From NCBI GenBank assembly GCA_964646035.1, contig CAZYDJ010000001.1:7346-71345 (forward strand): a DNA stretch of 64,000 bases, in the 5' to 3' direction. Below the pieces are notes generated by a model, which saw only the letters and a list, made by a program, of their open reading frames with translations, ran no database searches and was not told the origin of the DNA. This document shows, piece by piece, positions 2,549 to 38,930 of the stretch (its first letter is position 1; every line of letters begins with the position of its first letter). A program made the position numbers and the translations under genes. Source of the stretch: an uncultured Fibrobacteraceae bacterium (GTDB lineage: Bacteria; Krumholzibacteriota; Krumholzibacteriia; LZORAL124-64-63).

Positions 2549-2658
2549 GATTCCTTTCCCGGCGGGATGGCGTTGCCCGGCCCTCCGGAGCTGGAGGGCC
2601 GGGGCGTCAATCTAGGCGACGCGGGCGGGGCTGTCCAGCCATCGCGGTCCCCTAACGG

Positions 2659-2686
2659 GTCCAGGGCGCCTCGGGGCGCCCTGGAC
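2659..2686. terminator. GC-rich perfect hairpin (12-bp stem GTCCAGGGCGCC / GGCGCCCTGGAC, loop TCGG) between the 2715..3653 gene and tex
   Basis: The inverted repeat is read directly from the sequence. There is no clear U-tract, so it may be an attenuator or stabiliser rather than a classic intrinsic terminator. Confidence 0.35.
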
Positions 2687-2714
2687 TCGTGTCGCCGGGT
2701 AGTGGAATGTGGAA

Positions 2715-3653
2715 TCAGTCGGCGTGCTCGACGAGGATACTGACCGAACCGTCCAACTCGGCCCGCAAGTTGGGCCGAACCTGGGTCTCGATCTCGACCT
2801 TGTCGGGAGTGATGATCATTCCCTCGATTACGAAATCCTTCACCTTCTCGGCTCGCCGCAAGGCCAGCACCTCCTCCTCCGCGACCACCAGGACCTTCAG
2901 CGGAGAGTAGGGATGATCGCGACGGACGATGTCCAGGGCTCCGGTCAGCCACGCCAGCCCCTCCTCGTCCAGATCGACCTTCCCCTTGGAGAACAGGCGG
3001 TCTCCGGCGAAGGACAGGCAACGATCGCCCCGCTCGCGGTAGTCGAGAGCCGGGATACGGAAGCTCACGCCGGCATAGTTGTAGGTGTTGGTGCCCTTGT
3101 CGGTGACGCTGTAGAGGTAGCTGTAGGGATACCCCACGTCGAGGACGGAGGCCTGATCATCGCGTCCGTCCCAGTCAACCGTGCGCGGCGGACGCCCCTG
3201 GCCCCTGTACTCGCGGAACGGCGATCCCCGGAAATCGGTGACCGTCAGCTCCCAGGACTCGGCGTCGTGACCCTCGGGATCCTCCGGGAAGAATGTCGCC
3301 ACCGGGGACCCCGACATATCGGGAGCCCAGCAATGAGGCACCTGGTCGCTGCTTAGGCTGCCGGGATTGTTGACCAGCGACCGCAATCCGCCCACCGGGC
3401 TGATGGCCATGACGGCCTCGTCCTCCCGGCTGAAGAATGTGTCAATGATCGCCGCCCCGAGCTCCAGGGAGTAGGTGCTCTTCTGGATGTCCTGGCGAAC
3501 CTGGTTCTCGGCCTCGACCACCATCTCGGGGATGTCGGCGTTGACCTCCCCGTCCTCTTCGGTCCAGGCGAAGGCCGTTGCTGCGCCGAGGCAGAGCCAA
3601 CCCGCCGCGACGAGAATAATGACCGTGATCCTGATGTCGTTGCTGCTGTGCAT
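2715..3653 (-). CDS. secreted hypothetical protein, possible OmpA-like C-terminal region
   Basis: The N-terminal signal peptide reads MHSSNDIRITVIILVAAGWLCLGAATAFA. The C-terminus (LVVAEEEVLALRRAEKVKDFV) resembles an OmpA-like peptidoglycan-binding motif. It is co-directional with and immediately downstream of tonB. Confidence 0.45.
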   Translation of the reverse strand: MHSSNDIRITVIILVAAGWLCLGAATAFAWTEEDGEVNADIPEMVVEAENQVRQDIQKSTYSLELGAAIIDTFFSREDEAVMAISPVGGLRSLVNNPGSLSSDQVPHCWAPDMSGSPVATFFPEDPEGHDAESWELTVTDFRGSPFREYRGQGRPPRTVDWDGRDDQASVLDVGYPYSYLYSVTDKGTNTYNYAGVSFRIPALDYRERGDRCLSFAGDRLFSKGKVDLDEEGLAWLTGALDIVRRDHPYSPLKVLVVAEEEVLALRRAEKVKDFVIEGMIITPDKVEIETQVRPNLRAELDGSVSILVEHAD

Positions 3654-3723
3654 GATGCTTTCCTTTTGACTCAGGGCCTTTCCCTTTGTCTATCCGGCCC
3701 GTTCTCTTATCTCCGCAGACCGC

Positions 3724-5037
3724 CTAGTTGAGGCGGAAGACGATGGTGATCACCCCCCACTGCTCGGTCTTGGGCTGACCGTCCGGCAGCGGCTCGAAGC
3801 GGAATTCCCTGATGGCCGCCATCGCTGATCTGTTCAGATCCCGATGCGCCGCCGTCTGATCGAAATAGAGGTTGTCCTTCACCCTGCCGTCGGGCATCAC
3901 GGTGAAGTGGACCGCGACTACGCCTTCCCATCCGTTGCGGCGCGCAGTCTCGGTGTATTCCAACTGCGGTGCGTGCAGGATGTCACGTCCGACAATCTGC
4001 CCGCTGACGGTCATCGAGACACCGTTGCCTCCCAGGGCCGCCGCCGCCTCGACCGGGGCCGAGCGGCTGTCCGCTGAAGCCGCCTTCTCCACGATCGGCC
4101 CGGCAGAAGGGGCTTCCTTCAGGGACGACTTGCGGCCCGACAGGGCCCCGCTGCCGCCACCGCCGCCGGCGCCGTAATCGAGGATGGTCCGGCGGCCGGT
4201 GCGATTGCCGCCCGCCGCTGTCGCCGCCGCGGCGATATCCACTTCCGCCGGCGCCTGACGAGCCTCTTTCTTGAAGCCGCTCGCGGGGATCAATGACGAC
4301 ACCGTTCCCTGGTAGACTTCCTTGCCTTCCTCGAGCTGTCCGCCGACCAGGCCGGCGTTGCCGCCCTCGACTCCTCCGGAGGGAAGCTGCAGGGCCATTC
4401 GACCGCTGCCGCCGCCGTCACCGACCTCGAAATCCACCTCGTCGAGATTCAGCTTGCTCTTGCGGCCCACCAGCGACTGGGTATCGGCGTTGAATTTCGC
4501 CTGGGGCTGGCGCGAACTGAGCGCGGGCGCTCCGACATCTGCTGCGAGCGCCTGCTTGTTGCGCAGGTTCTCCAGCCCGGCCACCGGAGCCTGGGTGTCC
4601 GCGAACCGGCGCGAATTCAGCCGGCTGGCCGTCTGCAACTGCGTGCGGGGCTCGGTCGCCATCTTCAGATCGGGCGTCTTGACGTCCATCCGCATCTTCT
4701 GCCGCTTGAGGACCGGCTTGGTCATCGGCAAGGTCCGCTGCTTGAGAACCGGCTTGCTTTCCACGTGGGAATCGTCGACAGCCTTCTCCGGCTCCGCCTT
4801 GCGCTCCACCGGCGCCGGAGCCGGCCGGGTCTTCAAGCGCACCTTCTCGGCTACGTCTTCCCCGTAGCGGGATTCGATGTAGGCGATTTCGGTCAGCTCA
4901 TCGACCATCTCGCTGACACCGGTGGCGCCGATGCGCATCATGAACAGCAGCAGCAGCAGCAGCGCCGCATGGACGCCGAAGCTGACACCGAACCCGCCGC
5001 TGGTGGCGGCGCGACGGCTGACGGCGGCTTTCATCAT
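3724..5037 (-). CDS. tonB: energy transducer TonB (N-terminal TM anchor, Pro/Ala/Lys-rich spacer, C-terminal TonB domain)
   Basis: A 437-aa ORF with an N-terminal TM helix, a long proline-rich low-complexity region, and a C-terminal TonB-like fold (VVAVHFTVMPDGRVKD...AIREFRFEP). Its start overlaps the exbD stop (ATGA). Confidence 0.82.
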   Translation of the reverse strand: MMKAAVSRRAATSGGFGVSFGVHAALLLLLLFMMRIGATGVSEMVDELTEIAYIESRYGEDVAEKVRLKTRPAPAPVERKAEPEKAVDDSHVESKPVLKQRTLPMTKPVLKRQKMRMDVKTPDLKMATEPRTQLQTASRLNSRRFADTQAPVAGLENLRNKQALAADVGAPALSSRQPQAKFNADTQSLVGRKSKLNLDEVDFEVGDGGGSGRMALQLPSGGVEGGNAGLVGGQLEEGKEVYQGTVSSLIPASGFKKEARQAPAEVDIAAAATAAGGNRTGRRTILDYGAGGGGGSGALSGRKSSLKEAPSAGPIVEKAASADSRSAPVEAAAALGGNGVSMTVSGQIVGRDILHAPQLEYTETARRNGWEGVVAVHFTVMPDGRVKDNLYFDQTAAHRDLNRSAMAAIREFRFEPLPDGQPKTEQWGVITIVFRLN

Positions 5038-5441
5038 GGCGCCGCCTCCTCGGGCTTCTTCCCGGTCGCGATGGCGATGCGCGGCGCCTGGGCCGCCTCG
5101 ACCTCGGCGATCAGCTTCTCGACATCGCCGTAGAGCAGATCCTTGTCCGCCTTGACCACGGCGACCGCGTCCGGATTACCCTCGAACAGGGGAGTCAGCC
5201 GCGAACGCACTTCGTCGAGAGCAAGCTCCTCCTCGCCGAGATAGATTCGGCCGTCGATGGTGAAGATGATCTCGGTCTTCTCGGTATCGTCCATCTGATG
5301 GGCGCGCGCTTCCGGCAACGCCACATCGTGTTCGGTCTCGTTCAGGAACGGTGAGATTATCATCAGCGTCAGCACGACCACCAACGACACGTTGATCACC
5401 GGCACGACATCGATCTTGCTGCTGTAGCGGTATACCTTCAT
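5034..5441 (-). CDS. exbD: biopolymer transport protein ExbD/TolR
   Basis: A 135-aa ORF with a single N-terminal TM helix (INVSLVVVLTLMIISPF). Its size and topology are typical of ExbD. It is adjacent to exbB and tonB. Confidence 0.82.
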   Translation of the reverse strand: MKVYRYSSKIDVVPVINVSLVVVLTLMIISPFLNETEHDVALPEARAHQMDDTEKTEIIFTIDGRIYLGEEELALDEVRSRLTPLFEGNPDAVAVVKADKDLLYGDVEKLIAEVEAAQAPRIAIATGKKPEEAAP

Positions 5442-5872
5442 CGCGCCCCCTCTTCACGTTTGTTGAGGAGGGCGAGGCTTTTCGCTCCGCCGGCCTTGGC
5501 CGCGTCAAGCACGAACACGACTTCGTCCAGCTTCACGAAATCGCTGGGGATGATGACGACGGTCTTTTCGATGCGGCCCGACAGGTTGTCCCGCAGGGCT
5601 CCTTCGAGATCCGCGGACTCTACCGGATCGCCGTTGAGAAAAAGTCCGTCGGTCGTCACCGAAACCATCACCAATTCGTCCTTCTGGTCGGCGCTGGTGC
5701 TGACAACGGTAGCACTGGCCTCCGCTCGGGTCGCGTTGACCTGGATGCCGTTGCCGAGAATGGCCGGCATAGTGATGAGGAACACCACGATCAGGGTGGT
5801 CGTCACGTCCGCCAGCGGAGTGATGTTGGCATCGTTCTGGCCACGCATGGCCGATCTTTTCACGCCGGACAT
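5438..5872 (-). CDS. exbD: biopolymer transport protein ExbD/TolR (second copy)
   Basis: A 144-aa ORF with the ExbD N-terminal motif (ITPLADVTTTLIVVFLITMP). It forms a 4-nt ATGA overlap with the downstream exbD. Confidence 0.82.
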   Translation of the reverse strand: MSGVKRSAMRGQNDANITPLADVTTTLIVVFLITMPAILGNGIQVNATRAEASATVVSTSADQKDELVMVSVTTDGLFLNGDPVESADLEGALRDNLSGRIEKTVVIIPSDFVKLDEVVFVLDAAKAGGAKSLALLNKREEGAR

Positions 5873-5887
5873 CTTGAACTCCCGCCT

Positions 5888-6622
5888 CTAGTAGTTGCTG
5901 GCGACCGGCTCACGCTCGGCCTTTTGTTCCTCGACCGATTCGTAGATCGGATCCGAACTGGCGACCGCGGCCGCGGGGCGAGGCTCGGCCTGGCGCTCGC
6001 GAACGACGGGGATGACGCGGGTCATCAGGAAGAATTCCTCGCGTACGTCCTCGAGCTCGATGATCCGGGTGCGGATCCGACGCACGAAAACGTTGAAGAA
6101 CACTGTCGCGATGACAGCCACGACGATACCCGCGGCGGTGGTCAACAAGGCCTCCGAAACGCCCATGGCGACAACGGCGCTGCCGCCGGCCCCGGTGCGG
6201 GCGATGTCGGCGAAAGCCCTGATGATGCCGATCACCGTGCCGAACAGTCCGAGCAGGGGCGCGATGTTGCTCATCGTGCCCAGCACGCTGAGATTGCGCT
6301 CCATCTCCACCTGTTCGACCTCGATGGCGGTGTTGAATCGCTGCTGCATCTCGCTCGGCTTGAGATCCAGGTGCTCCAGGCAGTGCCCCAGCACGCGGGC
6401 CGCGGATCCATTCTGGCGATTGCAGTAATCGACCGCTCCAGGCAGATCCTGCTTGGTCATGTAGCCGGCGAGGCCTTTCATGAACTTGGTGACATCGGTG
6501 CGTGTCCTCAGAAAATACAGCCCCCGCTCGAAGGCGTAGCTGACGGTGATGATCGAGCAGATAAGCAGGACGACCATCGTCGGCGAACCGATGAACAGAT
6601 CGGTCAGAGACATACCCAACAT
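5888..6622 (-). CDS. exbB: MotA/TolQ/ExbB proton channel
   Basis: A 244-aa ORF with three TM segments and the ExbB signature region (LGTMSNIAPLLGLFGTVIGIIRAF). Confidence 0.86.
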   Translation of the reverse strand: MLGMSLTDLFIGSPTMVVLLICSIITVSYAFERGLYFLRTRTDVTKFMKGLAGYMTKQDLPGAVDYCNRQNGSAARVLGHCLEHLDLKPSEMQQRFNTAIEVEQVEMERNLSVLGTMSNIAPLLGLFGTVIGIIRAFADIARTGAGGSAVVAMGVSEALLTTAAGIVVAVIATVFFNVFVRRIRTRIIELEDVREEFFLMTRVIPVVRERQAEPRPAAAVASSDPIYESVEEQKAEREPVASNY

Positions 6623-6651
6623 GATGTGCCTTTCCCCTCCGTTGGAGCCGG

Positions 6652-9600
6652 TCAGTTGCCGGCAGGTTGATTTGCCTGGATTTCAGCGATCCGGCCCTGG
6701 GCCATCTCCGTCCATTCAGGCTTTCCGTTCGCGTTGATTATTCTCTGATAGGCCTGGATCGCCCCCGGCCAGTCCGACCGTCCTTCACAGATTTGGCCGA
6801 TCTGGGCAAGGCTGGCGATCCTGAACGGAGCCGACGCTGATCCCGCGCTGGCCGAGATCTCGTAACAGGACAGGGCCAGATCCATGCGCCCCATCTTCTC
6901 GTAGCATTCTCCGCGGCGGAAACCGATCTCGTCGGGATCCACGTCTCCGGCCGCCTCGGCCTTGTCGTAGGATTCCAGGGCGTGCTGGTAATCGCCCATC
7001 TCCTCCTGGTAAAGCGAGGCCACCTGATACCACAGCCCCTTGGCGTTCTCGTGCTCGGGGAAATCGGCCATGATCCACATCATCGTGCCTATCGCCGACG
7101 GCCAGTCCTCGAGTTCCTGGTAGCTGAGAGCGGCGTTGTAGAGAGCCATCGGCGCGTACTCGCTGCCGGGCTCCTGCTCCGCGAGCAGTTCGTAGGTCGT
7201 CGAGGCCTTCTCGTATTCCTCCTGCTTGAACAGCACGGTCCCGGCCCGGAATCGCGACAACGCCGCGAGATCGTGATCGGGATGCGTCTTGGCGAAGTTG
7301 CGGAACCCCGCGAGTGCCTGGTCCAGTTGTTCCATGCGGTAGTAACTCTCTGCCAGGTAGTAGAGCGCGCCGGGGCTGCTCTCGCTGTCTGCGAATTCAA
7401 GGGTGACTTTCTCGAAAGCCTTGGCTGCCGTCTCGTATTTACCTTCGGCGAAGGATTCCTGACCTTTAGTCCAGTAATAGTCGGCAGCCATCGGGCTGTC
7501 CGGACGCAACGCGACATACTCCTCTATGTCCCTGCCGCTGCGGTAGAAGCAGGATTGGATGCCGAGCTCGGCGTCCTCGACCCGCGCATCATCCGGGAAG
7601 GTTTCGAGGAAGGATCCGAAGGCGGCGATGGCCGCGTCGTCGTTCTGCTCGTTGTAATGGCAGTTGGCGACTCCGAAAGCGGCGTCGGCCGCGTGTTGGC
7701 CTTCGGGATTTCGGCGCAGCAGATCGGAATAGCTGCTGCGGGCCCCGGCGAAGTCGCCGAGACCGAACTTGGTGTCGGCCACGCGATAGCGCGCTTCTTC
7801 GGCTTCAGTCGATTCCGGGTGGTCGGACAGGAGTTTCTGCCATGTCGCCACGGCCTGTTCGTAGTACTGCAGACGGTAGTAGCAATCGCCCTGGTTCAGC
7901 ATCGCCGACGGAGCTTCGTCGCCGCTCGGGTTCTTGGCCAGGAAATCGGTGAAGTGCTGCAGCGCCTCTTCGTATTTGTGCTGGTTGAAGTAGAGCGAAC
8001 CCACCGCCAGCGAATTCTCACCTTCCTCGCTGTCGGCGTTGGCCAGCGCGAGCATGAATTTTTCCTGTTCCTCGAGGGCGAGATCGTATTCGTCGATCTG
8101 GCTGTATCCGGCGACCATCCCCTGCAGGCTGGCCACTGCCACGTTGCTGCGGGGGTAACCGGTCAACACCAGGCGGTACATCCCCACAGCCTCGCGGAAG
8201 AGACCCTGCGAATAGTAGGCCTCGCCGAGGTAGTAGTAGGTCCGCGCGCGCCAGTCGCTGGGAGTGGGCAGCAGGCGGTTGGCGATGAAGTGGTAATTGG
8301 TGATCAGACGGTCGAACTGGGCGAGGTCGAAGTAGGCGACCGTGGCCAAAAACAGCGCCCGCTCGCCGACGTCGGTGTTGACGTACTGGTCCATCACGTT
8401 CTGGAAATCCCGGATGGCCAGATCGTATTCCTCGAGACGGTAGTGGCTGAATCCCTTCAGCACCCTCACCCGCGCCGCCAGGTGGTCGCCCGAATACTGC
8501 TGGAAGAACTGTTCGGCCATCAGGACGGCCTGGTCATAGTTCTGCTCGGCGGTATAGGCGTAGACGATCTTGTGCAGGGCGGCGCTGGCGACCGGGTTCT
8601 CGGGATGCCGCTTGAACACCTCGGTGAACGAGAAGATCGCGTTGGAAGGCCGCTCGAGCGCCATATAGGACAGGCCGGCCAGATAATCGGCCTCGGCGCA
8701 GATATGGGCATCGGGATGGGCCTCGACCAGATCCTCGACCTGCCGGATGCAGTCGTTGTAGGCGCTTTCCCGATAGGCGATGCAGGCCAGCTTGTACAGA
8801 GCCACCGGAACGTGGCGGCTTTCGGGATTCTCTTCGATGAAACCCTTGTAGCTGCGCCGCGCGATCCGGTCCTGGCCGCTGTTGTAGAAAGCGTCGGCGA
8901 TGCTGAAAGCGATATCCTCGGCCAGAGGGCTGTCCGGGAAACGGCGTTGGGCCTGGCGATAACGCTGAATGGCCAGGATGAACTGGCCGGTCGCCTCGTA
9001 GCATCGACCCAGGAAATAGAGACCGCGGTCGGTCTTGACGTCCTCGAAAAGAGTGATCGCCTCATCGAACCGATCGGCTTGGTAGGCAAGCACGCCGAGG
9101 GCGAACTTTACCGCCGGCAGATCACGGTAACCCGGCCGGGCCTCCAGCAGTTTCTCGTAGACCCTCTCCAACCCCTCCCAGTTGCCGGTGATGACATAGG
9201 TCTGTCCGAGGTCGAAAAGCGTCTCGCCCTCGAGGAAGGTCTCGGAGTGATCGGCCAACAACCGGTCGAACATCGCGACGGACTCGTCGAAGCGTTCCAG
9301 GTTGAAGAGGCACTCGCCGCTGCGCAGCAGAACACTGGCCGCGAGATAGGAATCGAAGCCGTTGTGATCGCCGACCTTCTCGTATTCGTTCAGGGCGCCG
9401 TGGCTGTCGCCCGTCTTGAAGTAGCACTCGCCCAACATGAACCTGGCCTTCGCCGCGCGGGACGATTTGCCGTATTCGTTGAGGTAGAGCTGGTACTGCT
9501 GCATCGCCGCGGCCTTGTCCTCACTCCCGGTGAACGACTTGCCGGCGGTGATCCACAGTTCATCCTCGCTCGGGACGAGTTTCTCCTCGTCCCCGGCGAA

Positions 9601-9657
9601 AAGCGCTACCGGCGCCAGAAGCAGCAGCGCGATGGTGATGGCGCGGATTCGTCTCAT
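6652..9657 (-). CDS. large secreted tetratricopeptide-repeat (TPR) protein associated with the TonB/ExbBD cluster
   Basis: About 1000 aa. A signal peptide (MRRIRAITIALLLLAPVALFA) is followed by many 34-aa TPR-like repeats (A..Y..A..Y.). The start at 9655-9657 overlaps the upstream gene's stop in a TGATG junction. The six-frame ORF extension to 9768 is not believed. Confidence 0.78.
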   Translation of the reverse strand: MRRIRAITIALLLLAPVALFAGDEEKLVPSEDELWITAGKSFTGSEDKAAAMQQYQLYLNEYGKSSRAAKARFMLGECYFKTGDSHGALNEYEKVGDHNGFDSYLAASVLLRSGECLFNLERFDESVAMFDRLLADHSETFLEGETLFDLGQTYVITGNWEGLERVYEKLLEARPGYRDLPAVKFALGVLAYQADRFDEAITLFEDVKTDRGLYFLGRCYEATGQFILAIQRYRQAQRRFPDSPLAEDIAFSIADAFYNSGQDRIARRSYKGFIEENPESRHVPVALYKLACIAYRESAYNDCIRQVEDLVEAHPDAHICAEADYLAGLSYMALERPSNAIFSFTEVFKRHPENPVASAALHKIVYAYTAEQNYDQAVLMAEQFFQQYSGDHLAARVRVLKGFSHYRLEEYDLAIRDFQNVMDQYVNTDVGERALFLATVAYFDLAQFDRLITNYHFIANRLLPTPSDWRARTYYYLGEAYYSQGLFREAVGMYRLVLTGYPRSNVAVASLQGMVAGYSQIDEYDLALEEQEKFMLALANADSEEGENSLAVGSLYFNQHKYEEALQHFTDFLAKNPSGDEAPSAMLNQGDCYYRLQYYEQAVATWQKLLSDHPESTEAEEARYRVADTKFGLGDFAGARSSYSDLLRRNPEGQHAADAAFGVANCHYNEQNDDAAIAAFGSFLETFPDDARVEDAELGIQSCFYRSGRDIEEYVALRPDSPMAADYYWTKGQESFAEGKYETAAKAFEKVTLEFADSESSPGALYYLAESYYRMEQLDQALAGFRNFAKTHPDHDLAALSRFRAGTVLFKQEEYEKASTTYELLAEQEPGSEYAPMALYNAALSYQELEDWPSAIGTMMWIMADFPEHENAKGLWYQVASLYQEEMGDYQHALESYDKAEAAGDVDPDEIGFRRGECYEKMGRMDLALSCYEISASAGSASAPFRIASLAQIGQICEGRSDWPGAIQAYQRIINANGKPEWTEMAQGRIAEIQANQPAGN

Positions 9658-11009
9658 CAATCTTCTCCCCCGTTCTTCCGGTCGCCGGAACCGCTGATGT
9701 CGATCCGGATGGGTGTCCGGGTCCGGTTCCGGAAGCTCAGGATCTCGACGTTCACCGAGTGATCCCACAACTGGTCCAGTTCATCGACGATCTCCATGGT
9801 CGCGGTGTAGCGACCGTCGCCGACGAGACGTCCGTTCTCGTCCTCGCCGCCCCAGGTGATGGATTCCGCGGGAGCGCCCTTGCCGCTCAGGGCCCTGACC
9901 AGGGCTCCCTGCCCGTCCAGGATCTCCAGGCGCCAGGACTTCACCTTGCCGTTGACCGCGGTGCTGACGTCGAAGGTCACATTGCGATCCTGTCCGGCGG
10001 GGCTGAAGCGTTCGCGATCGGCCTGGATCCGGATGCCGTCGGGGACTCCGAACCTCATCGTGGCGCTCATGACGCTGGTTCCGCCCAGTTCATGACCCAC
10101 GTAGGCGTAATCGAGCTGCCAGTTCTGGTATCGGACGCCGGCGCCGTAACTGTATTGCTCACGCAGGGAATCGTAGCCGCCGCGCAAAACCACGTTGCGG
10201 GCGACCCAGCCCTCGGCTCCCGCCTGGACCTTGGCGTCCATGTACTCCGTCTTCATCAGGTCGGTGATCAGCATCAGACGGTTGTTGAAGAAACGCAGGG
10301 ATGCGCCGCCGCGGACGGTGCGGGCCAGCTTCTCGGGCTCCGTGTTCAGCGTGATCTCGGGCGCCACCAGGTTCTGGACCGAAACGCCGACTCCGAGATG
10401 CTTGTTCGGGCGCATGTAGAATCCCGCATCCAGGCCCATCCCGCTGCCGGAGTAGCCGTCGATGTCCTGGGAGACCGATTTTCCGGTCAGGCCCCAGCCC
10501 ATCCGGCTGTTGCCGAAGGCGTAGCTGATCGAAACCACGCCCTCCTTCTCGCTGAACTCCTCGCCCGTATCGTCGAAGATGCTGGTTCTTTCGAAGTCCC
10601 CGCTGTGCACGAAAGTGCCGCTGAAGGCGAACGTGCCCATGCTCGTGGTGGGCATTCCCAGCGAGAAGAAGGAGTACTTGGTGTCCTCGAAGAGCGTAGC
10701 GCCCATCGCGGTCAACTCCATCGTGCGCAGCTGAGAAAGCCCCGCCGGGTTCCAGTACGCTGTGGCGACATCGTCGCCGGCGGCGACACCGGCTCCGCCG
10801 AGCGCGAGGCTGCGGGCGCTGCTGCCGAAGCGCAGATAGGCTCCCGGAGCTCCGGCGTCATACGACGCGAACGCGCTGCGGGCTAAAACCGCCATCAGGA
10901 CCAGCAGCAGCAACGTCACCGCGAATCGCAGCAGACGGCAGACTGGTGAGCCGAAACGGCGGGCTCCGCTGTCGAGCGGGTTGTCATGGCTGGTGGCGTG
11001 GATACCCAT
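9657..11009 (-). CDS. outer-membrane beta-barrel protein, PorV/PorQ/FadL-like, with a C-terminal FlgD-Ig-like domain
   Basis: A signal peptide is followed by the motif GAGVAAGDDVATAYWNPAGL, which is characteristic of PorV/FadL-like barrels. The C-terminal segment ITWGGEDENGRLVGDGRYTATMEIVD resembles the FlgD Ig-like / T9SS-CTD fold. It starts 9 nt after the giant adhesin gene stop. Confidence 0.55.
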   Translation of the reverse strand: MGIHATSHDNPLDSGARRFGSPVCRLLRFAVTLLLLVLMAVLARSAFASYDAGAPGAYLRFGSSARSLALGGAGVAAGDDVATAYWNPAGLSQLRTMELTAMGATLFEDTKYSFFSLGMPTTSMGTFAFSGTFVHSGDFERTSIFDDTGEEFSEKEGVVSISYAFGNSRMGWGLTGKSVSQDIDGYSGSGMGLDAGFYMRPNKHLGVGVSVQNLVAPEITLNTEPEKLARTVRGGASLRFFNNRLMLITDLMKTEYMDAKVQAGAEGWVARNVVLRGGYDSLREQYSYGAGVRYQNWQLDYAYVGHELGGTSVMSATMRFGVPDGIRIQADRERFSPAGQDRNVTFDVSTAVNGKVKSWRLEILDGQGALVRALSGKGAPAESITWGGEDENGRLVGDGRYTATMEIVDELDQLWDHSVNVEILSFRNRTRTPIRIDISGSGDRKNGGED

Positions 11010-11018
11010 TGCCGTCTC

Positions 11019-14000
11019 CTATTTCACCACCGCGATCTTGCGGCGGATGTCATAACCCGTGCCGGTGATCCGGCAGATGTAGCCTCCGTTGGCGACAATG
11101 TCGCCGTCGCCGTCGCAGCCGTTCCAGGTGAACTGGTTGGTGACTCCGGCCCGGGCATCGATGCTCATGGTCAGGACCGAGGCACCGTAGAGGTCATAGA
11201 TGATCATCTTGGCCGGCCCGTCGGCGGGCGGATTGAAGAGGATCAACGTCGACTCGTCGCCGGCTCGGAACGGGTTCGGGCGGTTGGTGATGGGCTTGCC
11301 TACTCCCAAAGCCGCCGTCGTGTACAGATTCACCGACTGGACAACCTCGCGGACCCCGCTCACTTCCTCGGCGAAGAAGCGCAGCACGTGCAGTCCGGTG
11401 TCGGCGGGGATCAGTTCGGCGAGAGAGAAGGGACCGCTGTACGCCGTCGTCGGCAGGGTGCCGTCCGAACCGTCGATATCCATGAACACGGCCCTGATCC
11501 CGTCGGGAGCCTCGGTCTGCGGAGTCAGTGTGATCCGCGTGTCGAAGGTGATGTACTTGCCGTCCTCGTAATCGGAGGCCACGCCCTCGTAGCTGATCTC
11601 AGTCGCCGGCGGTCCTGCCACCAGCAGTTCCCGCAGCTCCGGCGCCATGCCCAGGCACGAGACCTGAAGCAAGATGTCTTCGGTGGCGTCGTAATCAGCC
11701 CTCAAAGAGACGACCGCATGACCGTCGGCGCTGGTGACGACCAGAATTTCAGGCTGGCCGGCCGGTCCGACCGTACCGTCGCCCTCGAGAACCTCGAAAT
11801 CGATGTCCAGGCCGGGAATGGCGTTGCCCGCTGCATCGTCGACTTCGGCGATGACCGTCACGACGTCGTTCGGGCGCATGACACCGGAGAACGCTCCGCC
11901 GTCTCCGTCCTGCAGACTGACCACGAAACTGTTCGCAGCCCCGGGCAGGACCGTTATCTGGCTGCTGATCGAAGAGCCGCCCTCGCTATCCTCGACGCGC
12001 AGGTAGATGACCTCGGCGCGGTCGTAGGACTGGTAGGCGAAGGAGGCGATCCCGCCCTCGGTCGAACCCATCTGGTAGGCCAGGGTGCCGGCGGGACTGA
12101 GCGAGATGTCGGGCCGGATATCGCCGGTCCAGGCATGGAATACCGTGACCGTGAACGCAACGTCGGCCGAGGTGACTAATTCACCGGTGTCGCCGTCGAC
12201 GCGGCCGATGGTCATCGGCCAGGTGGCTCCGGCTATGACCGTGTCCGGAACCGAGATATCGTATTCCACGCTGGCCGGGACGACGGTCAGCACGCCGCTA
12301 TAACCCTCACGGCCGTATGCGTCGACTGCACGGATCACGATCTGCTCGCTGATGCCGTATGTCTGGTGGTCGATGACAGCCACTCCCGCGACCAGGCTGC
12401 CGCCGGCGACTCCCAGTTCGGCGGTGGCCGCCGACCAGTTCGGCTTCAGTGCGCTGATGGTGAAGTCGCCGCCGGCCGGTATGGGCGTGCCGTCCTGGGT
12501 GTCGATCAGGCGCAGGCCGAGTTGGAACGTCGAAGGAGGCCCGGTAATCACGATCGCCGGATCCGGCAGATCGATCGCGTACGTCACGTCGCGCACCTGG
12601 ACATCCACCACGCCGCCGATCGCGTCCGGAGCATCGGCATCCGCCGCGTAGATCGAGACCTGTCCGGTTCCAGCGAGAATCACGTCTATGGTGCGGGATC
12701 CGTTGATGAACGCGGCGCCGGCTGCGGCGGGATCGGAGAGCATGAGCCACCCGGCGACCGAGCACGTCACGTCGATCGATCCCGAGTTCAGGGTGGTGAG
12801 CCTGTTGTAGTACTGGTCCACGGCCTGAACCGTGAGCGGGAACGCCACGCCGACATGTTGCGGCAGCGGCTCACCGGTCTTGCCCGCGGTATCGATCGAT
12901 CCGGGAACTGCGGTTTCGCCCGGAGCCAGGACCAGGACCTGCTTGAATCCGTCGGGAAGCATCCGGCAGGTGTTGCTGACTCCGACTACTCCGTCGATGT
13001 CGCTGACCCTGATGAAGATCTCCTCGGCCAGGGTGTAGCTCTGTTCGATCAGGCAGTAGCCGCTGTTGTAGGTCTGCTGGTGGATGCCGTAGTTGCCGGT
13101 CACCGGCATTCCGGTCACCGCGCTGAGGATCTCGATGTCGAGCATGCCGCCTTGCGTGGTGACCCTTTCCCCGGTGTTGGAGTCCATCAGTTCGACTTCG
13201 AGCGGGAATGTCGACGGGCCGCCGACGGTGGCGTTCTCGGGAATCGAGACGGCGTAGTAGAGCCCGCCGGTCTGCATGTCGATGACGTCGCTGACAATCT
13301 GCCGGCCGTAGTCGTCGACCATGCGGACAACCAGGTTCTCGAGAGCGCTGTAGCTCTGGTTGTTGATCACGGCGACGCCGTTGACCAGGGCCCCTGAAGT
13401 CACGCCCAGGCTGCCGGTGCCCGCCGAGAGATCGGCGCGCAGGGGCTCGAGCGTGAAGTGGTTGAAGGCCGACGGCATGGGGAATCCGGTCAGCGGATCC
13501 ATCAGCCTGATGGTCATCGCGAAGCCGGGGATCGGCCCGGTGGAGGCCGCTGCCGGCACGTCGATCTCGTAGTAGTAGGGATCGACCAGGGTAACGGTCG
13601 TGGTCTGGGGGGTCCGCGCGGGATCGTCCAGATCGGACGCCGTGACGCTGACCGGACCGGCCTGGGTCAGGAACGACGAGAACGTCCGGGCCCCGTTGAT
13701 GAAGGACTGGTCGTTGACGTCGGGATTGCCGACGATGGCGAACGAGCCGTCGGAGGCTTCCAGATGTACGGTGCCGACCGCAGTCGTGTCCGCCACGTTC
13801 CAGTACTGGTCGACGGCGTAGACATCGATCGGGAACGGCTCGCCGGGCCTCTGGGAATCCGGATCGCCGTCCTTGCCGGTCAGCGAATAGGCGGGATCTC
13901 CGGGATGGGCCGTCTCGCCGGGGGCCAGAATCTGCAGGTGCTTGTACCCGTCGTGATCGACGCTGAACAGCGGGCTGTAGCCGACCAGGCCGGTATCATC

Positions 14001-17000
14001 CCATATCCTCAGATAGATGTTCTCGGCGCGGGTGTAGCTCTGCTCGAAATCGAGAACGCCGTGCTCGAGTCGCTGCAGGATAGTTCCGACCGCGCCCACG
14101 GCCTGCACGCCTGTCTCGTCATAGATCTCGATGTTGAACAGGCGGCCGTCGTCGATCACCGTTCGCGTTTCACGGTCGCGCAGCGAAACGGAAACCGGGA
14201 ACGTGGCCGGGGGCCCCACCCGGGGAGCGGGGTCGGTCTGGACGGTTACGATGTACTCGACTCCGTTGTCGAGCATGGTGATCGGCGTGGAATAGCCCTT
14301 CCGCCCGGAGATGTCGGAAACCTCGATCACGATCGGCTCGACGGTGTCATAGGCCTGTGCCGGGACCGCAAGCTGTCCGTCGGCCAGATGACCGTCTGTA
14401 ACCAGCAGGGTCCCGTCGGCGGGCTGCAGGTCGGTGCCGAGAGCGCGGATCGTGACGTCGGTCTGGGCGGTATCGATGATGTTGCCGTCGCCGTCGACCA
14501 GATGGACGGACATCGCGAAAGTGCTCGGCGGCCCGACCTGGGCGTTGCCGGGCACGCTGATGACGTACTGGGCCCCTTCCTCCACTAGGAAGATCACTGA
14601 CTGGTCCGCGATTGCCGGATCATCCTCGTTCGAAGCGGTGACCGTCACGTAGCCAACCGAAGTCAATGAGATCGGGAAGATGATGTCGCCGTCGACCAGG
14701 GGATTGCCGTTGTTCAGGGGATTGGTGTCGTTGAGCGACGCATCATCGCTGACCAATCGGATCACGCCGCCGTCATGGGAGACGGGATTCCAGAACCGAT
14801 CGACCGCCTGGACGGTCACCGGGAACTGGAGGGCCGCGATGCGGGGATCGGGAAGGCCGATCTTGCCGTCTGCCTCGTAGCCGCCGGGCAGAGGGGTCTC
14901 GCCGGGGGCCACGATCTGCAACTGGATGAATTCGCCCGGGTCCACCTGCACCCGGCTCGAGTCGGCGCGCTCCGGAGAGGCGAGATCGAAGGCCGTCAGA
15001 GTGCGCAGGCCGGCGGTGCGGAAGTAGAGATCGAAATCGCCGGTCCCGTCCGCCGCCAGGGGCGAGTTGTTCAGGGAAACCATCTCGAAGAATTCATCGC
15101 ATTGGATACGGACGATCGGTTCGGCCGCAACCGGGTTCCAGAAAGCGTCCACTGCCTGGATGTGGGCCGTGACGGTGTCGCCGGCGGCCACCGGCAAGGG
15201 CACGCCGATCTTACCGGGAGCCTCTCCCGGGCTCGCCGTTTCGCCGTCGAGCAGGACCTGCAGATTCTCGTAGGGACCGGCGAAGACCGTGAAGTCGTTG
15301 CTCGATCCGGTGCGTCCGTAGACGTCCTCGCGGGCTTCGAGATGAACGTCGACGCCGACCCGGGTGATCTGGATCTGGTTGCGCCACACGCCCACGAACG
15401 AACCCGAGCCGAAGCCGTCGGACATGTCGATCCTGACCGGGGTCATGATGTCGGCGCCGTGGCTGACCGAGAGGGAGATCTCATCGGTGTAATTGGTGAT
15501 GTGGTTGCCGAAGAAGTCGCGGGCGATGACCGTCACGTTGGGCAGCCAGGAACCCGCCTGATGATCCGGAACCGGCTGCAGGATGTCGCCCGGGTCGGGA
15601 TTGGTCTGGTTGTTGATGCCGATGTCGAAATGGTCGATCACGCCGGGGGAAACCGGGATGATCGCGGTGCCGGCGGCGCCGCTGACCGAATCCGTCGCCT
15701 GCACGGTCTGCTCGTTGGGCTCGGCCAGGGTCTGCAGCGTGGCCGGGAACAGGGCCGTAGGCGTGAGCAGGGTCTGCGGCGATGCCGGCAGGACGGCCGC
15801 CGCGTCGGTGCTGCTGAAGTCCAGCGTGCGGGGCAAGGAGGGCGAAGAGGTCGCGATCGGGTTCCAATAGGCGTCGGCGGCGATGACCGTGACGTTGAAC
15901 GGAACTCCCGCATCCTGGGAAGTGGGGGTGCCGATCTTGCCGTCGCTCTCGATCGAATCGAAAATACCCGGCTCGAGCTGTTCGCCCGGAGCCTCGACCA
16001 CGATCCGCTTGTAGACGTTGGGAATGACCGGCACGGAGCTCGACAGGCTGGTGCCGATGCCGCCGATATCACCCTGCAGCACCTGGCCGCCGTGGGTCCT
16101 GAAGATGACCCGGATATCGGTGGGGCTGCTCAACACCATCATGTTGTCGGAATACTCCGGCAACAGCATATAACCGGTGGGGCAGCTTAGCGTCACGGTC
16201 CGCGATCCGGAAACCAGGTTCCCGTAGCGGTCGACGGGACGCAGCGTGACCGGCTCGATCACGTTGCCCGCCACCAGGCCGTTGGGCACGCCCAGATTGC
16301 CGCTGAAAGCCGGGTCGTTGAGACCCGGCAGCCAGGTCTCGCCCGGGTAGGTGAAGAGGATGCGGTCCAGGGGCCCCGCATTCACCTGGAAACCGCCGGA
16401 TACCCCGACAACTCCGCCGTTGCTGTCGATGATCAGGTTGGCGCTGAAAGCCCGCTTGGTGACCTGGGCGTGCGCATCCAGGACGCCGTTGACGAACGTC
16501 GCCGTATCGGTGATCAGGAAATCGGCGCTCTCGTCGGTCTCGCCGATCTTGACGCGCATCGAAACCGCGCCGTTGAACGGAAACAGGTTGTCGTTGATAT
16601 CCATGGCCCTGACCCGGACCAGGAACGGAATCGTAGTCACCTGGGCCACCGTCGTATCCCAGACGGCGTAATCGAAGACGAAGTGGTCCAGGCCCTGGGG
16701 GTTCACTTCGACCCAGCTCTCGCTGAAGGAGCCGCCGGTGCCGGTGGCCGCCACCTCTATCCTCGTGGTTCCGGACTGGATCAGGGTCATGTCCAGGTCC
16801 TGCTCGACGCTGCTGGTCATGTCCAGATCGAAGGGAAGGACCACGCCCGCGCTGGGGTCGTTGCAGGTCCATGTCAGATGGGGATAGGGACCCACCTCAA
16901 TCGGATTCCAGTATTCGTCGGTGGCGTAGACGTCCACGCCGTTGAAAACCGCGCCCGAGATCTGCGCCAGGGGCGTGCCGGCCTTGCCTGGATACACTCC

Positions 17001-17789
17001 GGGGGTCAGGATCTCGCCCGGAAGCAGAAGCACGATGGTGGCGAGGTTGCCGGGATGCAGCGGCGTCACCAGGACCTGGCCGGAAGCCGGGAAGGCCTGG
17101 CCGGGATAGATGACGCTGCCGGTGGCGCTGAGGTTGTTGTCGCGGGTCACGGGATCGGTGCCGAGCAGGGTCACCGAAGTGGTCAGTGTTCCGAAGCTGA
17201 AGGAGGCCCCGGGCAGAGTGATTGTCGGGCCGGAGTCGAAGTTGCCGATGGCCGCCTGCAGCAACACGTTGTCGGCGAAGTTACGCACCGCGTTTCCCAG
17301 GGCGTCCTCGGCCGTGATAGTGATGGAGATGGACTGGCCCACGTATTTGTCGCCGGCGGGCACATTGATGACGATGTGGTCCACGGGGTTGTAGCAGTTC
17401 ATCAGGATCTCGGCCACGGGCACCGAGGGATCGTCATAGTCGCCGACCTGCAGACGAAGCGGCTGTCCGGGCGCCAGGAAAGTGATGTCGTCGAATTGAC
17501 GCTCGCCGTTCTGGAGATACGCCCGCGCAGGCAAGGTGGTCGGAACGTCCGGTGACCGGAGGTCGGCGTTGATGAAGTCGGCCGCGGTGTCGGTCGTGCC
17601 GTCGGCGTTGACCGCCCGCACCCTGACGCTGAAACCAGCGCCGGATGTCGCCGCCGGATAGCCGTCGACGATGTTCGGATCGGTGACCGTGAGTTCGAGA
17701 TGATCGAAAGCGGCCGCCAATCCCGGCAAGGCCGAAAGAATGACGGTGGCCATGATGATCCGGAATATCAGTGCAGTCTTGATTCGCAT
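11019..17789 (-). CDS. giant (2256 aa) secreted repeat adhesin-like protein with tandem Ig-like domains and a T9SS (Por) C-terminal sorting domain
   Basis: The signal peptide MRIKTALIFRIIMATVILSALPGLAAA starts from the ATG at 17787-17789. The body is made of two families of beta-sandwich repeats (..VGPPSTF..D..G.. and ..PG..DGK.G.P....F.VTV.AVD.YWNPV) arranged as higher-order super-repeats. The C-terminus NPFRAGDESTLILFNP...IIYDLYGASV...FTWNGCDGDGDIVANGGYICRI matches the T9SS type-A CTD. Confidence 0.8.
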   Translation of the reverse strand: MRIKTALIFRIIMATVILSALPGLAAAFDHLELTVTDPNIVDGYPAATSGAGFSVRVRAVNADGTTDTAADFINADLRSPDVPTTLPARAYLQNGERQFDDITFLAPGQPLRLQVGDYDDPSVPVAEILMNCYNPVDHIVINVPAGDKYVGQSISITITAEDALGNAVRNFADNVLLQAAIGNFDSGPTITLPGASFSFGTLTTSVTLLGTDPVTRDNNLSATGSVIYPGQAFPASGQVLVTPLHPGNLATIVLLLPGEILTPGVYPGKAGTPLAQISGAVFNGVDVYATDEYWNPIEVGPYPHLTWTCNDPSAGVVLPFDLDMTSSVEQDLDMTLIQSGTTRIEVAATGTGGSFSESWVEVNPQGLDHFVFDYAVWDTTVAQVTTIPFLVRVRAMDINDNLFPFNGAVSMRVKIGETDESADFLITDTATFVNGVLDAHAQVTKRAFSANLIIDSNGGVVGVSGGFQVNAGPLDRILFTYPGETWLPGLNDPAFSGNLGVPNGLVAGNVIEPVTLRPVDRYGNLVSGSRTVTLSCPTGYMLLPEYSDNMMVLSSPTDIRVIFRTHGGQVLQGDIGGIGTSLSSSVPVIPNVYKRIVVEAPGEQLEPGIFDSIESDGKIGTPTSQDAGVPFNVTVIAADAYWNPIATSSPSLPRTLDFSSTDAAAVLPASPQTLLTPTALFPATLQTLAEPNEQTVQATDSVSGAAGTAIIPVSPGVIDHFDIGINNQTNPDPGDILQPVPDHQAGSWLPNVTVIARDFFGNHITNYTDEISLSVSHGADIMTPVRIDMSDGFGSGSFVGVWRNQIQITRVGVDVHLEAREDVYGRTGSSNDFTVFAGPYENLQVLLDGETASPGEAPGKIGVPLPVAAGDTVTAHIQAVDAFWNPVAAEPIVRIQCDEFFEMVSLNNSPLAADGTGDFDLYFRTAGLRTLTAFDLASPERADSSRVQVDPGEFIQLQIVAPGETPLPGGYEADGKIGLPDPRIAALQFPVTVQAVDRFWNPVSHDGGVIRLVSDDASLNDTNPLNNGNPLVDGDIIFPISLTSVGYVTVTASNEDDPAIADQSVIFLVEEGAQYVISVPGNAQVGPPSTFAMSVHLVDGDGNIIDTAQTDVTIRALGTDLQPADGTLLVTDGHLADGQLAVPAQAYDTVEPIVIEVSDISGRKGYSTPITMLDNGVEYIVTVQTDPAPRVGPPATFPVSVSLRDRETRTVIDDGRLFNIEIYDETGVQAVGAVGTILQRLEHGVLDFEQSYTRAENIYLRIWDDTGLVGYSPLFSVDHDGYKHLQILAPGETAHPGDPAYSLTGKDGDPDSQRPGEPFPIDVYAVDQYWNVADTTAVGTVHLEASDGSFAIVGNPDVNDQSFINGARTFSSFLTQAGPVSVTASDLDDPARTPQTTTVTLVDPYYYEIDVPAAASTGPIPGFAMTIRLMDPLTGFPMPSAFNHFTLEPLRADLSAGTGSLGVTSGALVNGVAVINNQSYSALENLVVRMVDDYGRQIVSDVIDMQTGGLYYAVSIPENATVGGPSTFPLEVELMDSNTGERVTTQGGMLDIEILSAVTGMPVTGNYGIHQQTYNSGYCLIEQSYTLAEEIFIRVSDIDGVVGVSNTCRMLPDGFKQVLVLAPGETAVPGSIDTAGKTGEPLPQHVGVAFPLTVQAVDQYYNRLTTLNSGSIDVTCSVAGWLMLSDPAAAGAAFINGSRTIDVILAGTGQVSIYAADADAPDAIGGVVDVQVRDVTYAIDLPDPAIVITGPPSTFQLGLRLIDTQDGTPIPAGGDFTISALKPNWSAATAELGVAGGSLVAGVAVIDHQTYGISEQIVIRAVDAYGREGYSGVLTVVPASVEYDISVPDTVIAGATWPMTIGRVDGDTGELVTSADVAFTVTVFHAWTGDIRPDISLSPAGTLAYQMGSTEGGIASFAYQSYDRAEVIYLRVEDSEGGSSISSQITVLPGAANSFVVSLQDGDGGAFSGVMRPNDVVTVIAEVDDAAGNAIPGLDIDFEVLEGDGTVGPAGQPEILVVTSADGHAVVSLRADYDATEDILLQVSCLGMAPELRELLVAGPPATEISYEGVASDYEDGKYITFDTRITLTPQTEAPDGIRAVFMDIDGSDGTLPTTAYSGPFSLAELIPADTGLHVLRFFAEEVSGVREVVQSVNLYTTAALGVGKPITNRPNPFRAGDESTLILFNPPADGPAKMIIYDLYGASVLTMSIDARAGVTNQFTWNGCDGDGDIVANGGYICRITGTGYDIRRKIAVVK

Positions 17790-18250
17790 GACAATCCTGC
17801 CGCTGCTGGGTGGAAAAAACGTCTTCCAATGGGTTGGGTCATGCAGAATGCACGGCGGCGGCGCCCTGGAGCCCATTCCGGGAGACCCGAGACGGGAAGC
17901 CAGCAAGTGATATGCCATGGAAAACAATGGCTTATGCTTCCCAATGATGCCCTTTGATTCCTGTTTAAAACCCGATCCCCCGACACGCCCGCAGAAGCGT
18001 CGGGTAACGGGCGGAAACTCCAGGGCATAGATGGAGATTGCAGGACGCTACAGGGCGCGACAGGACGCGATGACCCTGCCCGGGGCACTCTCGACGACGA
18101 CGGGGAATTCCACTCCAGCGACCGGTTGGGAATAATTCCCCGGCCCGTTTCCGGCGGACGAATAAATGGGATTGTGGGGCGGGCGAACGAGGATTATCGT
18201 TCCCGTCAGAAAACCGAGCGATACGCGATCCTCGAAGGAGAAATTCCAGC

Positions 18251-24260: not shown

Positions 24261-24275
24261 CAGCCAGCTCCTAGA

Positions 24276-26443: not shown

Positions 26444-26482
26444 CTGGAACATCCCCCGCGGCCTGAGAATCACATCAATATA

Positions 26483-31548: not shown

Positions 31549-31554
31549 AGCCGC

Positions 31555-34309: not shown

Positions 34310-34322
34310 TGGAAGGAAAAGC

Positions 34323-38896: not shown

Positions 38897-38930
38897 GACC
38901 AGGCGCCGTTCATTCTGCTACCGTACCTCC

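Follow-up and report, generated by a model that had tools for sequence, protein, structure and literature searches.

A strictly conserved eight-gene operon of Krumholzibacteriota, probably encoding an undescribed envelope-spanning machine

Results

Eight genes and their junctions

We analysed a stretch of 64,000 nucleotides (the window) from an uncultured Fibrobacteraceae bacterium assigned by GTDB to the Krumholzibacteriota (assembly GCA_964646035.1, contig CAZYDJ010000001.1, positions 7,346 to 71,345 of the forward strand). Reading of the open reading frames (ORFs) and their translations between positions 2715 and 17789 of the window gives eight genes, all on the minus strand and in one direction. 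This module encodes a giant immunoglobulin (Ig)-repeat protein, a barrel of the PorV/PorQ family, a tetratricopeptide repeat (TPR) protein, the parts of an ExbB-ExbD-ExbD-TonB motor and a small Ig/OmpA-like protein. The genes and the features discussed below are as follows, in the direction of transcription and with lengths in amino acids (aa).

17902-17917, minus strand: sigma-54-type -24/-12 element, TGGCATATCACTTGCT, 113 nt upstream of the ATG of the giant
11019-17789, minus strand: giant protein, 2256 aa counted from the ATG
[quoted passage not shown]
9657-11009, minus strand: PorV/PorQ-family barrel, 450 aa
9741-10034, minus strand: FlgD-Ig-like domain of the barrel (aa 326-423), 32.0 bits on Pfam FlgD_ig against a cut-off of 27 over aa 345-406, model confidence (pLDDT) 80-90
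9660-9740, minus strand: C-terminal tail of the barrel (..ILSFRNRTRTPIRIDISG..), conserved and predicted disordered (pLDDT <50)
6652-9657, minus strand: TPR protein with a signal peptide, 1001 aa counted from the ATG; the codon just before this ATG is a TTG in the same frame
5888-6622, minus strand: ExbB/TolQ-type proton-channel subunit, 244 aa
5438-5872, minus strand: ExbD/TolR-type subunit 1, 144 aa
5034-5441, minus strand: ExbD/TolR-type subunit 2, 135 aa, with ATGA overlaps on both sides
3724-5037, minus strand: TonB-type force transducer, 437 aa
2715-3653, minus strand: eighth gene, encoding a secreted Ig/OmpA-like protein of 312 aa
3480-3533, minus strand: 'LPEMVVEAENxVRQxIxK' motif of the 312-aa protein, nearly invariant in alignments, just past the signal peptide and predicted to be disordered
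2655-2690, minus strand: GC-rich hairpin 25 nt past the last stop, with 16-nt arms 94% complementary (-37.8 kcal/mol, z = -3.4) and no T-run

Each junction was read directly. The stop of the giant gene is followed after 9 nt by the ATG of the barrel gene, and the barrel stop and the TPR start are joined by TGATG. The TPR and exbB genes are 29 nt apart and exbB and the first exbD 15 nt, the ExbD/ExbD and ExbD/TonB junctions are ATGA overlaps, and 70 nt separate the tonB gene from the gene for the 312-aa protein. These readings bear out the genes, the orientation and the junctions given in the original prediction, which was made from the same DNA. Its inventory described seven genes and left undescribed the 312-aa eighth gene that lies inside its coordinates. 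The hairpin at 2655-2690 is likely the end of the transcription unit. Downstream lies an unrelated Tex-like gene; upstream, a 460-nt intergenic region is followed by a divergent gene. No RNA element of Rfam was found within or upstream of the eight genes. A simple scan for sigma-70 promoters and terminators gave counts at chance level and was uninformative.

Conservation of the module

The same eight genes in the same order are present in every related locus long enough to show them, about 50 loci drawn from species-representative genomes and metagenomes, while the genes flanking the module are unrelated from locus to locus. The order holds in deeply diverged lineages at 23-39% protein identity and across 37-70% GC, and this synteny is far beyond chance. 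Three diverged loci (L086, L087 and L090, 45-54% GC) have the complete module at 23-39% identity, and the barrels of distant modules score 95.5-131.6 bits on the PorV/PorQ family model NF033709. Where barrel homologs are named, they are called PorV/PorQ family proteins of Candidatus Krumholzibacteria. An exhaustive search with aa 1-1200 of the giant gave 844 cluster representatives; the four for which neighbouring genes were present on the contig all adjoin a PorV-family barrel and a motor. The original prediction regarded the arrangement as unusual and advised checking the gene order in related metagenome-assembled genomes (MAGs). The check confirmed the order in all loci long enough, and what had seemed unusual is the invariant rule of this lineage, in about 50 Krumholzibacteriota-type genomes.

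The median gaps are -1 nt between giant and barrel, 4 nt between barrel and TPR, 1 nt between the two exbD genes and -4 nt between exbD and tonB. The loosest joint is that between TPR and exbB, with a median of 111 nt, and two tight sub-units can be distinguished: giant-barrel-TPR, and exbB-exbD-exbD-tonB-312aa. A possible split of the operon had been placed between the adhesin/barrel genes and the TPR gene; the boundary actually lies between TPR and exbB, as indicated by the median gap and by an insertion found there in three loci. This insertion of 4.5 kb (L023:14337-18816, and the same place in L025 and L028) contains genes for an enoyl-CoA-hydratase-like protein, for an Fe-S protein and, in the opposite orientation, for a hybrid histidine kinase. 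The halves of the module nevertheless remain adjacent in L023, L025 and L028, and exbB retains a sigma-54-type element of its own.

Some individual loci deserve mention. In the distant module of L054 an extra ORF of 214 aa (L054:14259-14903) lies between the TPR gene and exbB, and the gap between giant and barrel is about 520 nt. L062 and L063, which belong to one MAG (JBDRMW01, 37-41% GC), contain two different giant-barrel pairs, and therefore the module, at least as far as this pair goes, can be duplicated within one genome. A Peptidase_C25 gene adjoining the module in L001 was considered as PorU and rejected (26 bits against a cut-off of 420). The record titles of module-bearing MAGs name Fibrobacteraceae, Gemmatimonas, Latescibacterota, Zixibacteriota and Gemmatimonadota (L006-L022, L016, L018, L053, L054). 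The near-identical sequences of L053 and L054 are labelled as different phyla; the deposited taxonomy is thus unreliable, and the titles were not used as taxonomy.

Sigma-54-type promoter elements

The element at 17902-17917 is the sole match to TGGCAYN5TTGCW in the whole window, where 0.04 would be expected, and it lies inside a block conserved in the alignment with L006 and L007. A sigma-54-type element is present 118-200 nt 5' of the giant gene in 36 of 46 related loci, as compared with 55 of 1800 random windows. A second such element occurs 5' of exbB in 19 of 45 loci, often after a hairpin with a T-run. In these 19 loci the TPR-exbB gap is at least 86 nt, and at least 160 nt in 18 of them; in the lineages with gaps of about 160 nt or more, among them those with the insertion, the element is 141-187 nt 5' of exbB. 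The loci with a gap of 25-31 nt, including the window, have no second element. The window thus appears to hold one sigma-54 operon, and elsewhere there are two units with the same class of promoter. Since exbB has its own sigma-54-type promoter where the halves are split, both halves would stay in one regulon. This agrees with the single transcription unit originally proposed: no internal promoter or terminator splits it in the window, and those seen in relatives still indicate co-regulation. No sigma-54 activator or enhancer-binding protein was found among the scanned ORFs of the window. Two genes for ECF-type sigma factors were observed. After the one at 53257-54045 comes a gene for a zf-HC2 anti-sigma factor (52265-53260), and after the one at 37450-38229 come genes for two CBM48/AMPK-CBM proteins (region 37450-40157).

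The giant protein and its C-terminal domain

The longest ORF of the giant begins at TTG 17927. The ATG was taken as the start because the orthologs measure 2244-2276 aa, a length kept phylum-wide at about 51% identity. This constancy of length and identity would suit a structural component better than a variable cargo. The protein is built as a series of beta-rich repeats, and has a Sec signal peptide, seven Big_1-like units of the pattern 'PGE..PG..GK.G.P...AVD.YWN' and the C-terminal beta-sandwich domain. Searches of the PDB with the giant sequence and with a profile of 16 sequences gave FlgD matches to the last ~70 aa only and no other solved relative.

The original prediction described the giant as a cargo with a type-A CTD. 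The tail is indeed like a T9SS CTD, and its assignment to type A is only borderline. The last 130 aa scanned alone reach 23.0 bits on TIGR04183 (cut-off 23), a match that was unlisted in the scan of the whole protein. On FlgD_ig the tail scores 26.3 bits (cut-off 27). PF18962 did not match the giant, and none of the type-B CTD models was listed for its tail. The giant CTDs constitute a subfamily of their own, with 68-162 bits among the giants of Krumholzibacteriota-type loci versus 33 bits to a generic CTD of the same genome. With the C-terminal part of the PorU model, the tails of distant giants give 33.7-36.1 bits, and they also match the tail of PorZ. In PorU and PorZ the CTD is known to escape cleavage and to remain attached to PorV and PorQ, respectively (PMC10202324). 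As far as sequence comparison goes, the resemblance of the giant CTDs to these retained CTDs points to anchoring rather than transit.

A second CTD-bearing protein is encoded in the window at 27222-29192 (minus strand). It is 656 aa long, with an ExeM/NucH-like nuclease region and an OB-fold, and its CTD passes TIGR04183 with 33.1 bits against 23. This type-A CTD protein is the best sign of type IX secretion in the window and suggests that T9SS-type sorting probably operates in this organism.

The PorV/PorQ-family barrel

The barrel scores 120.3 bits on the NCBIfam PorV/PorQ family model NF033709 (cut-off 90). The equivalog models remain below their cut-offs (PorV NF033710, 41.8/250; PorQ NF033711, 86.3/220; PorV2, 55.1/325), as do those of PorP/SprF (PF11751, 19.6/22.3; TIGR03519, 23.4/90.55). 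By these scores the protein is a member of the PorV family yet no ortholog of PorV, PorQ or PorP/SprF. An AlphaFold2 (AF2) model built with 21 homologs is of medium confidence (pLDDT 69.5). A Foldseek search of the PDB with this model placed PorV from the solved T9SS translocon at the top (chains 8gl6_F, E 2.5e-9, and 6h3i_F, E 1.3e-7), with FadL and TodX next. The barrel had been called PorV/FadL-like. It is PorV-like, although the PorV and PorQ equivalog scores are missed, and a generic FadL transporter was rejected: there is no Toluene_X match, NF033709 is passed and PorV chains are the best folds.

In the model, a highly conserved N-terminal segment of low confidence, which may be hatch-like, precedes about 14-15 strands, the Ig domain and the disordered tail. 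By the general topology rule for outer-membrane barrels, the Ig domain should be periplasmic. The 312-aa protein has a homologous Ig domain (25% identity, E 5e-6), and these two are closer to each other than either is to the tail of the giant. The pairing of the barrel Ig with the CTD of the giant on the basis of homology, as put forward in the original prediction, is thus not upheld: the closest relative of the barrel Ig is the Ig of the 312-aa protein, not the giant CTD (27 vs 37 bits). In the C-terminal tail, F426, R429, T430, P433, I434 and G440 are invariant in 21 sequences, and the alternating hydrophobic pattern of a strand is retained even in the most distant loci. The tail is therefore a candidate docking strand.

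The TPR protein and the motor

The TPR protein matches many TPR families of Pfam, including TPR_Slam (36.1 bits, cut-off 35.2), and scores 303 bits over nine stretches on TIGR02795 (CpoB/YbgF). ExbB passes Pfam MotA_ExbB with 104.2 bits. Its best NCBIfam models are TolQ (102 bits, equivalog cut-off 221) and ExbB (89 bits), both below the equivalog level. The two ExbD subunits pass Pfam ExbD with 62 and 67.7 bits, and for both the best NCBIfam model is TolR, again sub-equivalog (59 vs 127). In the TonB protein, a membrane helix bearing an S-x3-H motif stands at the N-terminus, and a ~320-aa linker connects it to a TonB_C domain that passes the Pfam cut-off (50.4 bits; TIGR01352, 53.6 bits). Orthology to GltC/E or to Tol proteins was rejected, every equivalog cut-off being missed; the matches to GltC (43.3 bits vs 450) and GltE (27.7 vs 225) are confined to TPRs. 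Anti-phage defence of the MotAB-containing Zorya type was also excluded, as PADLOC gave only ZorA at 20.9 bits on ExbB and no match for the other seven proteins.

No TonB-dependent receptor is encoded within the module in any locus. One is encoded in the window 14 kb away, at 31631-34309, and has a CarboxypepD_reg domain and a classical TonB box. It belongs to a plus-strand group of three genes (31554-36400) directly preceded by a TPP riboswitch (RF00059, 67.5 bits), and the true start of the receptor gene must be 3' of this riboswitch. The other two genes encode a thiamin pyrophosphokinase (34323-35027) and an SSF-family transporter (35027-36400). The group is, from its content, likely a thiamine-uptake operon.

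The 312-aa protein

The 312-aa gene is present in all complete modules. Its product has no Pfam or NCBIfam match and no lipobox. A profile of 20 orthologs matched YiaD (E 1.6e-4) and OmpA-family proteins in the PDB. In the AF2 model, a disordered region (aa 25-114) is followed by an Ig domain (aa 119-217) and an OmpA-like domain (aa 230-308), both folded with pLDDT ~90. Foldseek related the OmpA-like fold to OprF, MotB, TssL and Pal, and the Ig fold to FlgD. The OmpA-like domain is degenerate, and a 7-residue deletion falls exactly at the peptidoglycan-binding loop. The N-terminal motif at 3480-3533 resembles a TonB box or a TolA box, and may be compared with 'EQIVVTAS' before the plug of the receptor at 31631-34309.

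A parallel module in Elusimicrobiota

Homologs of the barrel with 31-37% identity (NF033709, 111.2 bits) occur in Elusimicrobiota (loci L064-L085 and L088, e.g. L083:9944-19104 and L088:113-29633). Here the barrel is fused at its C-terminus to TPR repeats. This Rosetta-stone fusion speaks for contact between the barrel and the stand-alone TPR protein in the window. In all ~20 loci the fused barrel gene is followed by the same five genes, encoding a FliG-like protein, a coiled-coil protein, MotA, MotB(OmpA) and a lipoprotein. The FliG-like protein is membrane-anchored and composed of FliG_M, FliG_C and TPR, and the coiled-coil protein is Pro-rich and 786-1090 aa long. Where the gene 5' of the barrel is visible (L081, L083, L088), it encodes a giant of 3108-6506 aa with the same repeat unit as the giant of the window and a related C-terminal domain. 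L088 also carries FlbD.

In this module a stator of the flagellar type, together with a FliG-like partner, seems to serve outside the flagellum, a use of which we know no earlier description. Given the pairing with MotAB, the giant/barrel/TPR core has, judged by gene content, two different links to a 5:2 ion-driven motor. To our knowledge, MotAB never serves TonB-dependent receptors, and the pairing is hard to reconcile with the Ton genes of the window being a mere neighbouring housekeeping system.

Efflux genes upstream of the module

The region 19903-26473 (minus strand), upstream of the module, is an ordinary TetR-regulated RND efflux operon, with genes for TetR (25763-26473), an outer-membrane factor (24276-25766), a membrane fusion protein (23094-24260) and an RND pump (19903-23097). 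The last two were assigned by eye from the translations.

Discussion

The eight genes form a strictly conserved operon in the uncultured Krumholzibacteriota and probably encode an undescribed envelope-spanning machine. The gene content, the domain families and folds, the invariant synteny, the shared class of promoter and the parallel version linked to MotAB are established here. Together, the synteny kept down to 23-39% identity, the shared sigma-54-type promoters and the MotAB pairing in Elusimicrobiota strongly back the functional coupling between the motor and the giant/barrel pair that had been suggested for this locus.

We propose a mechanical link between the proton-driven ExbB-ExbD2-TonB motor and the PorV-like barrel, in which the TPR scaffold and the Ig/OmpA-like protein would be the connecting pieces and the barrel would hold the giant by its CTD. 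We put the probability of this reading at about one half. The eight genes would be expressed from the sigma-54 promoter as one machine. The giant would be exported by Sec and then cross the outer membrane, most likely via the T9SS of the cell. It would be kept on the surface by an uncleaved CTD held by its own PorV/PorQ-family barrel, in the manner of PorU-PorV, PorZ-PorQ and SprB-SprF. On the periplasmic side, the Ig domain and the tail of the barrel would be joined to the inner-membrane ExbB5-ExbD2 motor via the TPR scaffold, the 312-aa protein and the long TonB. The C-terminal domain of TonB probably captures one or both of two segments, namely the TonB-box-like N-terminal strand in the 312-aa protein and the tail of the barrel. 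The conserved disordered segments, namely the barrel tail and the N-terminus of the 312-aa protein, are docking candidates by analogy with Agl-Glt, where segments of this kind become strands on binding (PMC11761067). Proton flow would then pull or move the barrel-giant complex. The likeliest purpose would be surface motility or active control of adhesion, as in Myxococcus Agl-Glt and in Flavobacterium SprB gliding.

Several points weigh against this proposal. We infer every protein-protein contact in it, as well as the surface location of the giant and the function. The CTD of the giant is only borderline on the type-A model of T9SS, and no T9SS core gene (SprA/Sov, PorK/L/M/N, PorU) was found among the scanned ORFs of the window. 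The barrel model is of medium confidence, with a provisional count of 14-15 strands, and its Ig domain is placed in the periplasm by the general topology rule. At the TPR-exbB joint, a terminator-like hairpin and a promoter of its own for exbB occur in about half of the related lineages, so that co-transcription is not universal. Finally, the receptor at 31631-34309 needs a TonB system, and the motor could have a general role too.

The last two points bear on a different explanation, that two independent units are inherited side by side. One would be a T9SS surface protein together with the PorV-like anchor dedicated to it and a TPR chaperone, the other the general Ton system of the cell, serving receptors such as that at 31631-34309. 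ExbB, the two ExbDs and TonB_C are ordinary members of their families, the receptor has a classical TonB box, and the TPR-exbB joint is the loosest (median 111 nt), is interrupted by 4.5 kb in L023, L025 and L028 and has terminator-like hairpins in some lineages. However, the adjacency outlasts both the insertion and divergence to 23-39% identity, and the split-off exbB has a sigma-54-type promoter of the same class as that of the giant gene. Housekeeping Ton systems are not usually under sigma-54-type control. Furthermore, the partners of the homologous giant/barrel pair in Elusimicrobiota are MotAB and a FliG-like protein, neither of which drives receptors, and the 312-aa protein is always present and would have no role in a plain Ton system. 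We regard independent neighbours as unlikely. A dedicated export or assembly system seems a still poorer prospect. Here the motor and TonB would energise the translocation or insertion of the giant at the outer membrane by the barrel-TPR pair, in a Slam-like or two-partner-like way and with no canonical T9SS, and the motor would act in biogenesis only. The substrate gene does lie directly 5' of the barrel gene, an order also seen in loci for TpsA/TpsB and Slam, and the TPR plus barrel architecture recalls Slam (TPR_Slam, 36.1 vs 35.2). Elusimicrobiota, which are not known to use T9SS, also have the giant/barrel pair. The proton-motive force powers secretion by the T9SS as well (PMC10202324). 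On the other hand, ~20 Ig-type domains are unlikely to pass through a barrel of FadL/PorV size whose N-terminal segment is hatch-like. A T9SS is probably available in this organism, as a protein of the same genome passes the type-A CTD model, and the likeness of the giant CTDs to the retained CTDs of PorU and PorZ again suggests anchoring, not transit.

The module could also be the Tol-Pal-like integrity system of this lineage, composed of TolQ-TolR-TolR and of counterparts of TolA (the TonB protein), Pal/TolB (the 312-aa protein) and CpoB (the TPR protein). The barrel and the giant would then be outer-membrane tethers and not a moving adhesin. TolQ and TolR are the best NCBIfam models of ExbB and the ExbDs, and the TPR protein reaches 303 bits on the CpoB model. 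The OmpA-like fold of the 312-aa protein matches Pal, OprF and MotB, and its N-terminal motif is placed like the TolA box of TolB. In addition, Bacteroidetes have no canonical tol-pal locus, and their PorE has been proposed as a CpoB-TolB-Pal fusion (PMC12204202). Yet the module has no gene for a TolB beta-propeller, the 312-aa protein lacks the lipobox and the peptidoglycan-binding loop, and no Tol equivalog cut-off is reached (TolQ 102/221, TolR 59/127). Sigma-54 control and a 2256-aa Ig-repeat protein are foreign to Tol-Pal, and the Elusimicrobiota counterpart has MotAB and a FliG-like protein. We give this explanation only a slim chance.

The mechanically linked machine that we favour resembles several known systems in part. 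In the T9SS, cargo and barrel genes cluster, an uncleaved CTD can be retained on a barrel, and cognate PorV-like barrels keep CTD proteins on the surface (PMC10202324). In the pairs PorU-PorV, PorZ-PorQ and SprB-SprF/PorP, like here, a PorV/PorQ-family barrel stands beside a large protein with a T9SS-type CTD. The present barrel differs from theirs by being non-orthologous and by having an extra Ig domain and a conserved tail; the CTD of the giant is borderline type A, not type B; and the pair lies within an ExbB-ExbD2-TonB/TPR/Ig-OmpA operon, with no part for the T9SS motor GldLM/PorLM. SprB-SprF in particular follows the same logic of an adhesin with its cognate barrel (PMC10202324), without orthology. 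The Agl-Glt machinery of Myxococcus xanthus has the same classes of parts, a likeness that is not by descent. It combines one TolQ-like with two TolR-like subunits and with transducers whose TonB CTDs dock on a large periplasmic TPR protein, and its outer-membrane barrels bind a TPR protein through disordered periplasmic segments and go with a surface adhesin (PMC11761067). In contrast, the barrel here is of the PorV family and not GltA/B/H, and the adhesin is a CTD-bearing Ig-repeat giant and not the lipoprotein CglB. The module has 8 genes where Agl-Glt has at least 17, and it has no cytoplasmic platform genes.

With the Ton system the module shares ExbB, ExbD and TonB_C domains that pass Pfam, the S-x3-H motif in the TonB helix and a TonB-box-like strand on a partner. 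Unlike that system, it has no receptor, two different ExbD paralogs, a very long TonB linker and a sigma-54-type promoter, and the candidate partners are a PorV-like barrel and a soluble Ig/OmpA-like protein. As in Tol-Pal/CpoB, the motor subunits score best on TolQ/TolR models and the TPR repeats are of the CpoB type. PorE, described as a 'compact Tol-Pal' (PMC12204202), has a C-terminal half that is Ig-like and then OmpA-like, as the 312-aa protein. In contrast to Tol-Pal and PorE, there is here no TolB propeller and no Pal lipobox, and the binding loop is deleted; the TPR and Ig-OmpA parts are separate proteins, and the module is tied to a giant surface protein. [quoted passage not shown] There the order of TPR, TolQ-like, two different TolR-like proteins and a membrane-anchored transducer is as in our module, whereas the transducer here ends in TonB_C and not in vWA, and the barrel, the giant and the Ig/OmpA-like protein are added. 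The present module is not described in that survey of periplasmic force transducers (PMC12204202). We found no paper that links Krumholzibacteriota with T9SS or gliding, or that describes this gene set.

More tentatively, the module and its Elusimicrobiota counterpart might be members of an unrecognised class of proton-driven, envelope-spanning surface machines, in which a giant/barrel/TPR core plugs into interchangeable 5:2 motors. These motors would be either ExbB-ExbD2-TonB with an Ig/OmpA-like adaptor under sigma-54, or MotA-MotB with a membrane-anchored FliG-like protein. Such a class would be a further type of gliding or adhesin actuation across several uncultured phyla, a possibility that we still consider doubtful.

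Few routes are known by which inner-membrane energy reaches the cell surface (Ton, Tol, the T9SS/gliding motor and Agl-Glt), and the module would, if our reading is true, add one. It joins T9SS-type parts, a PorV-like barrel and a CTD protein, to a Ton/Tol-type motor, and a sister version is built on a flagellar-type stator. Its sharply defined set of eight genes makes it a compact test case for the coupling of 5:2 motors to outer-membrane proteins. It bears on the roles of PorV-family barrels outside the canonical T9SS, and on whether the uncultured Krumholzibacteriota and Elusimicrobiota grip surfaces or travel over them. It gives a function-linked context to hundreds of 'hypothetical' giant genes and to the family of the 312-aa protein, and the sigma-54 promoter offers a regulatory handle and a starting point for expression studies.

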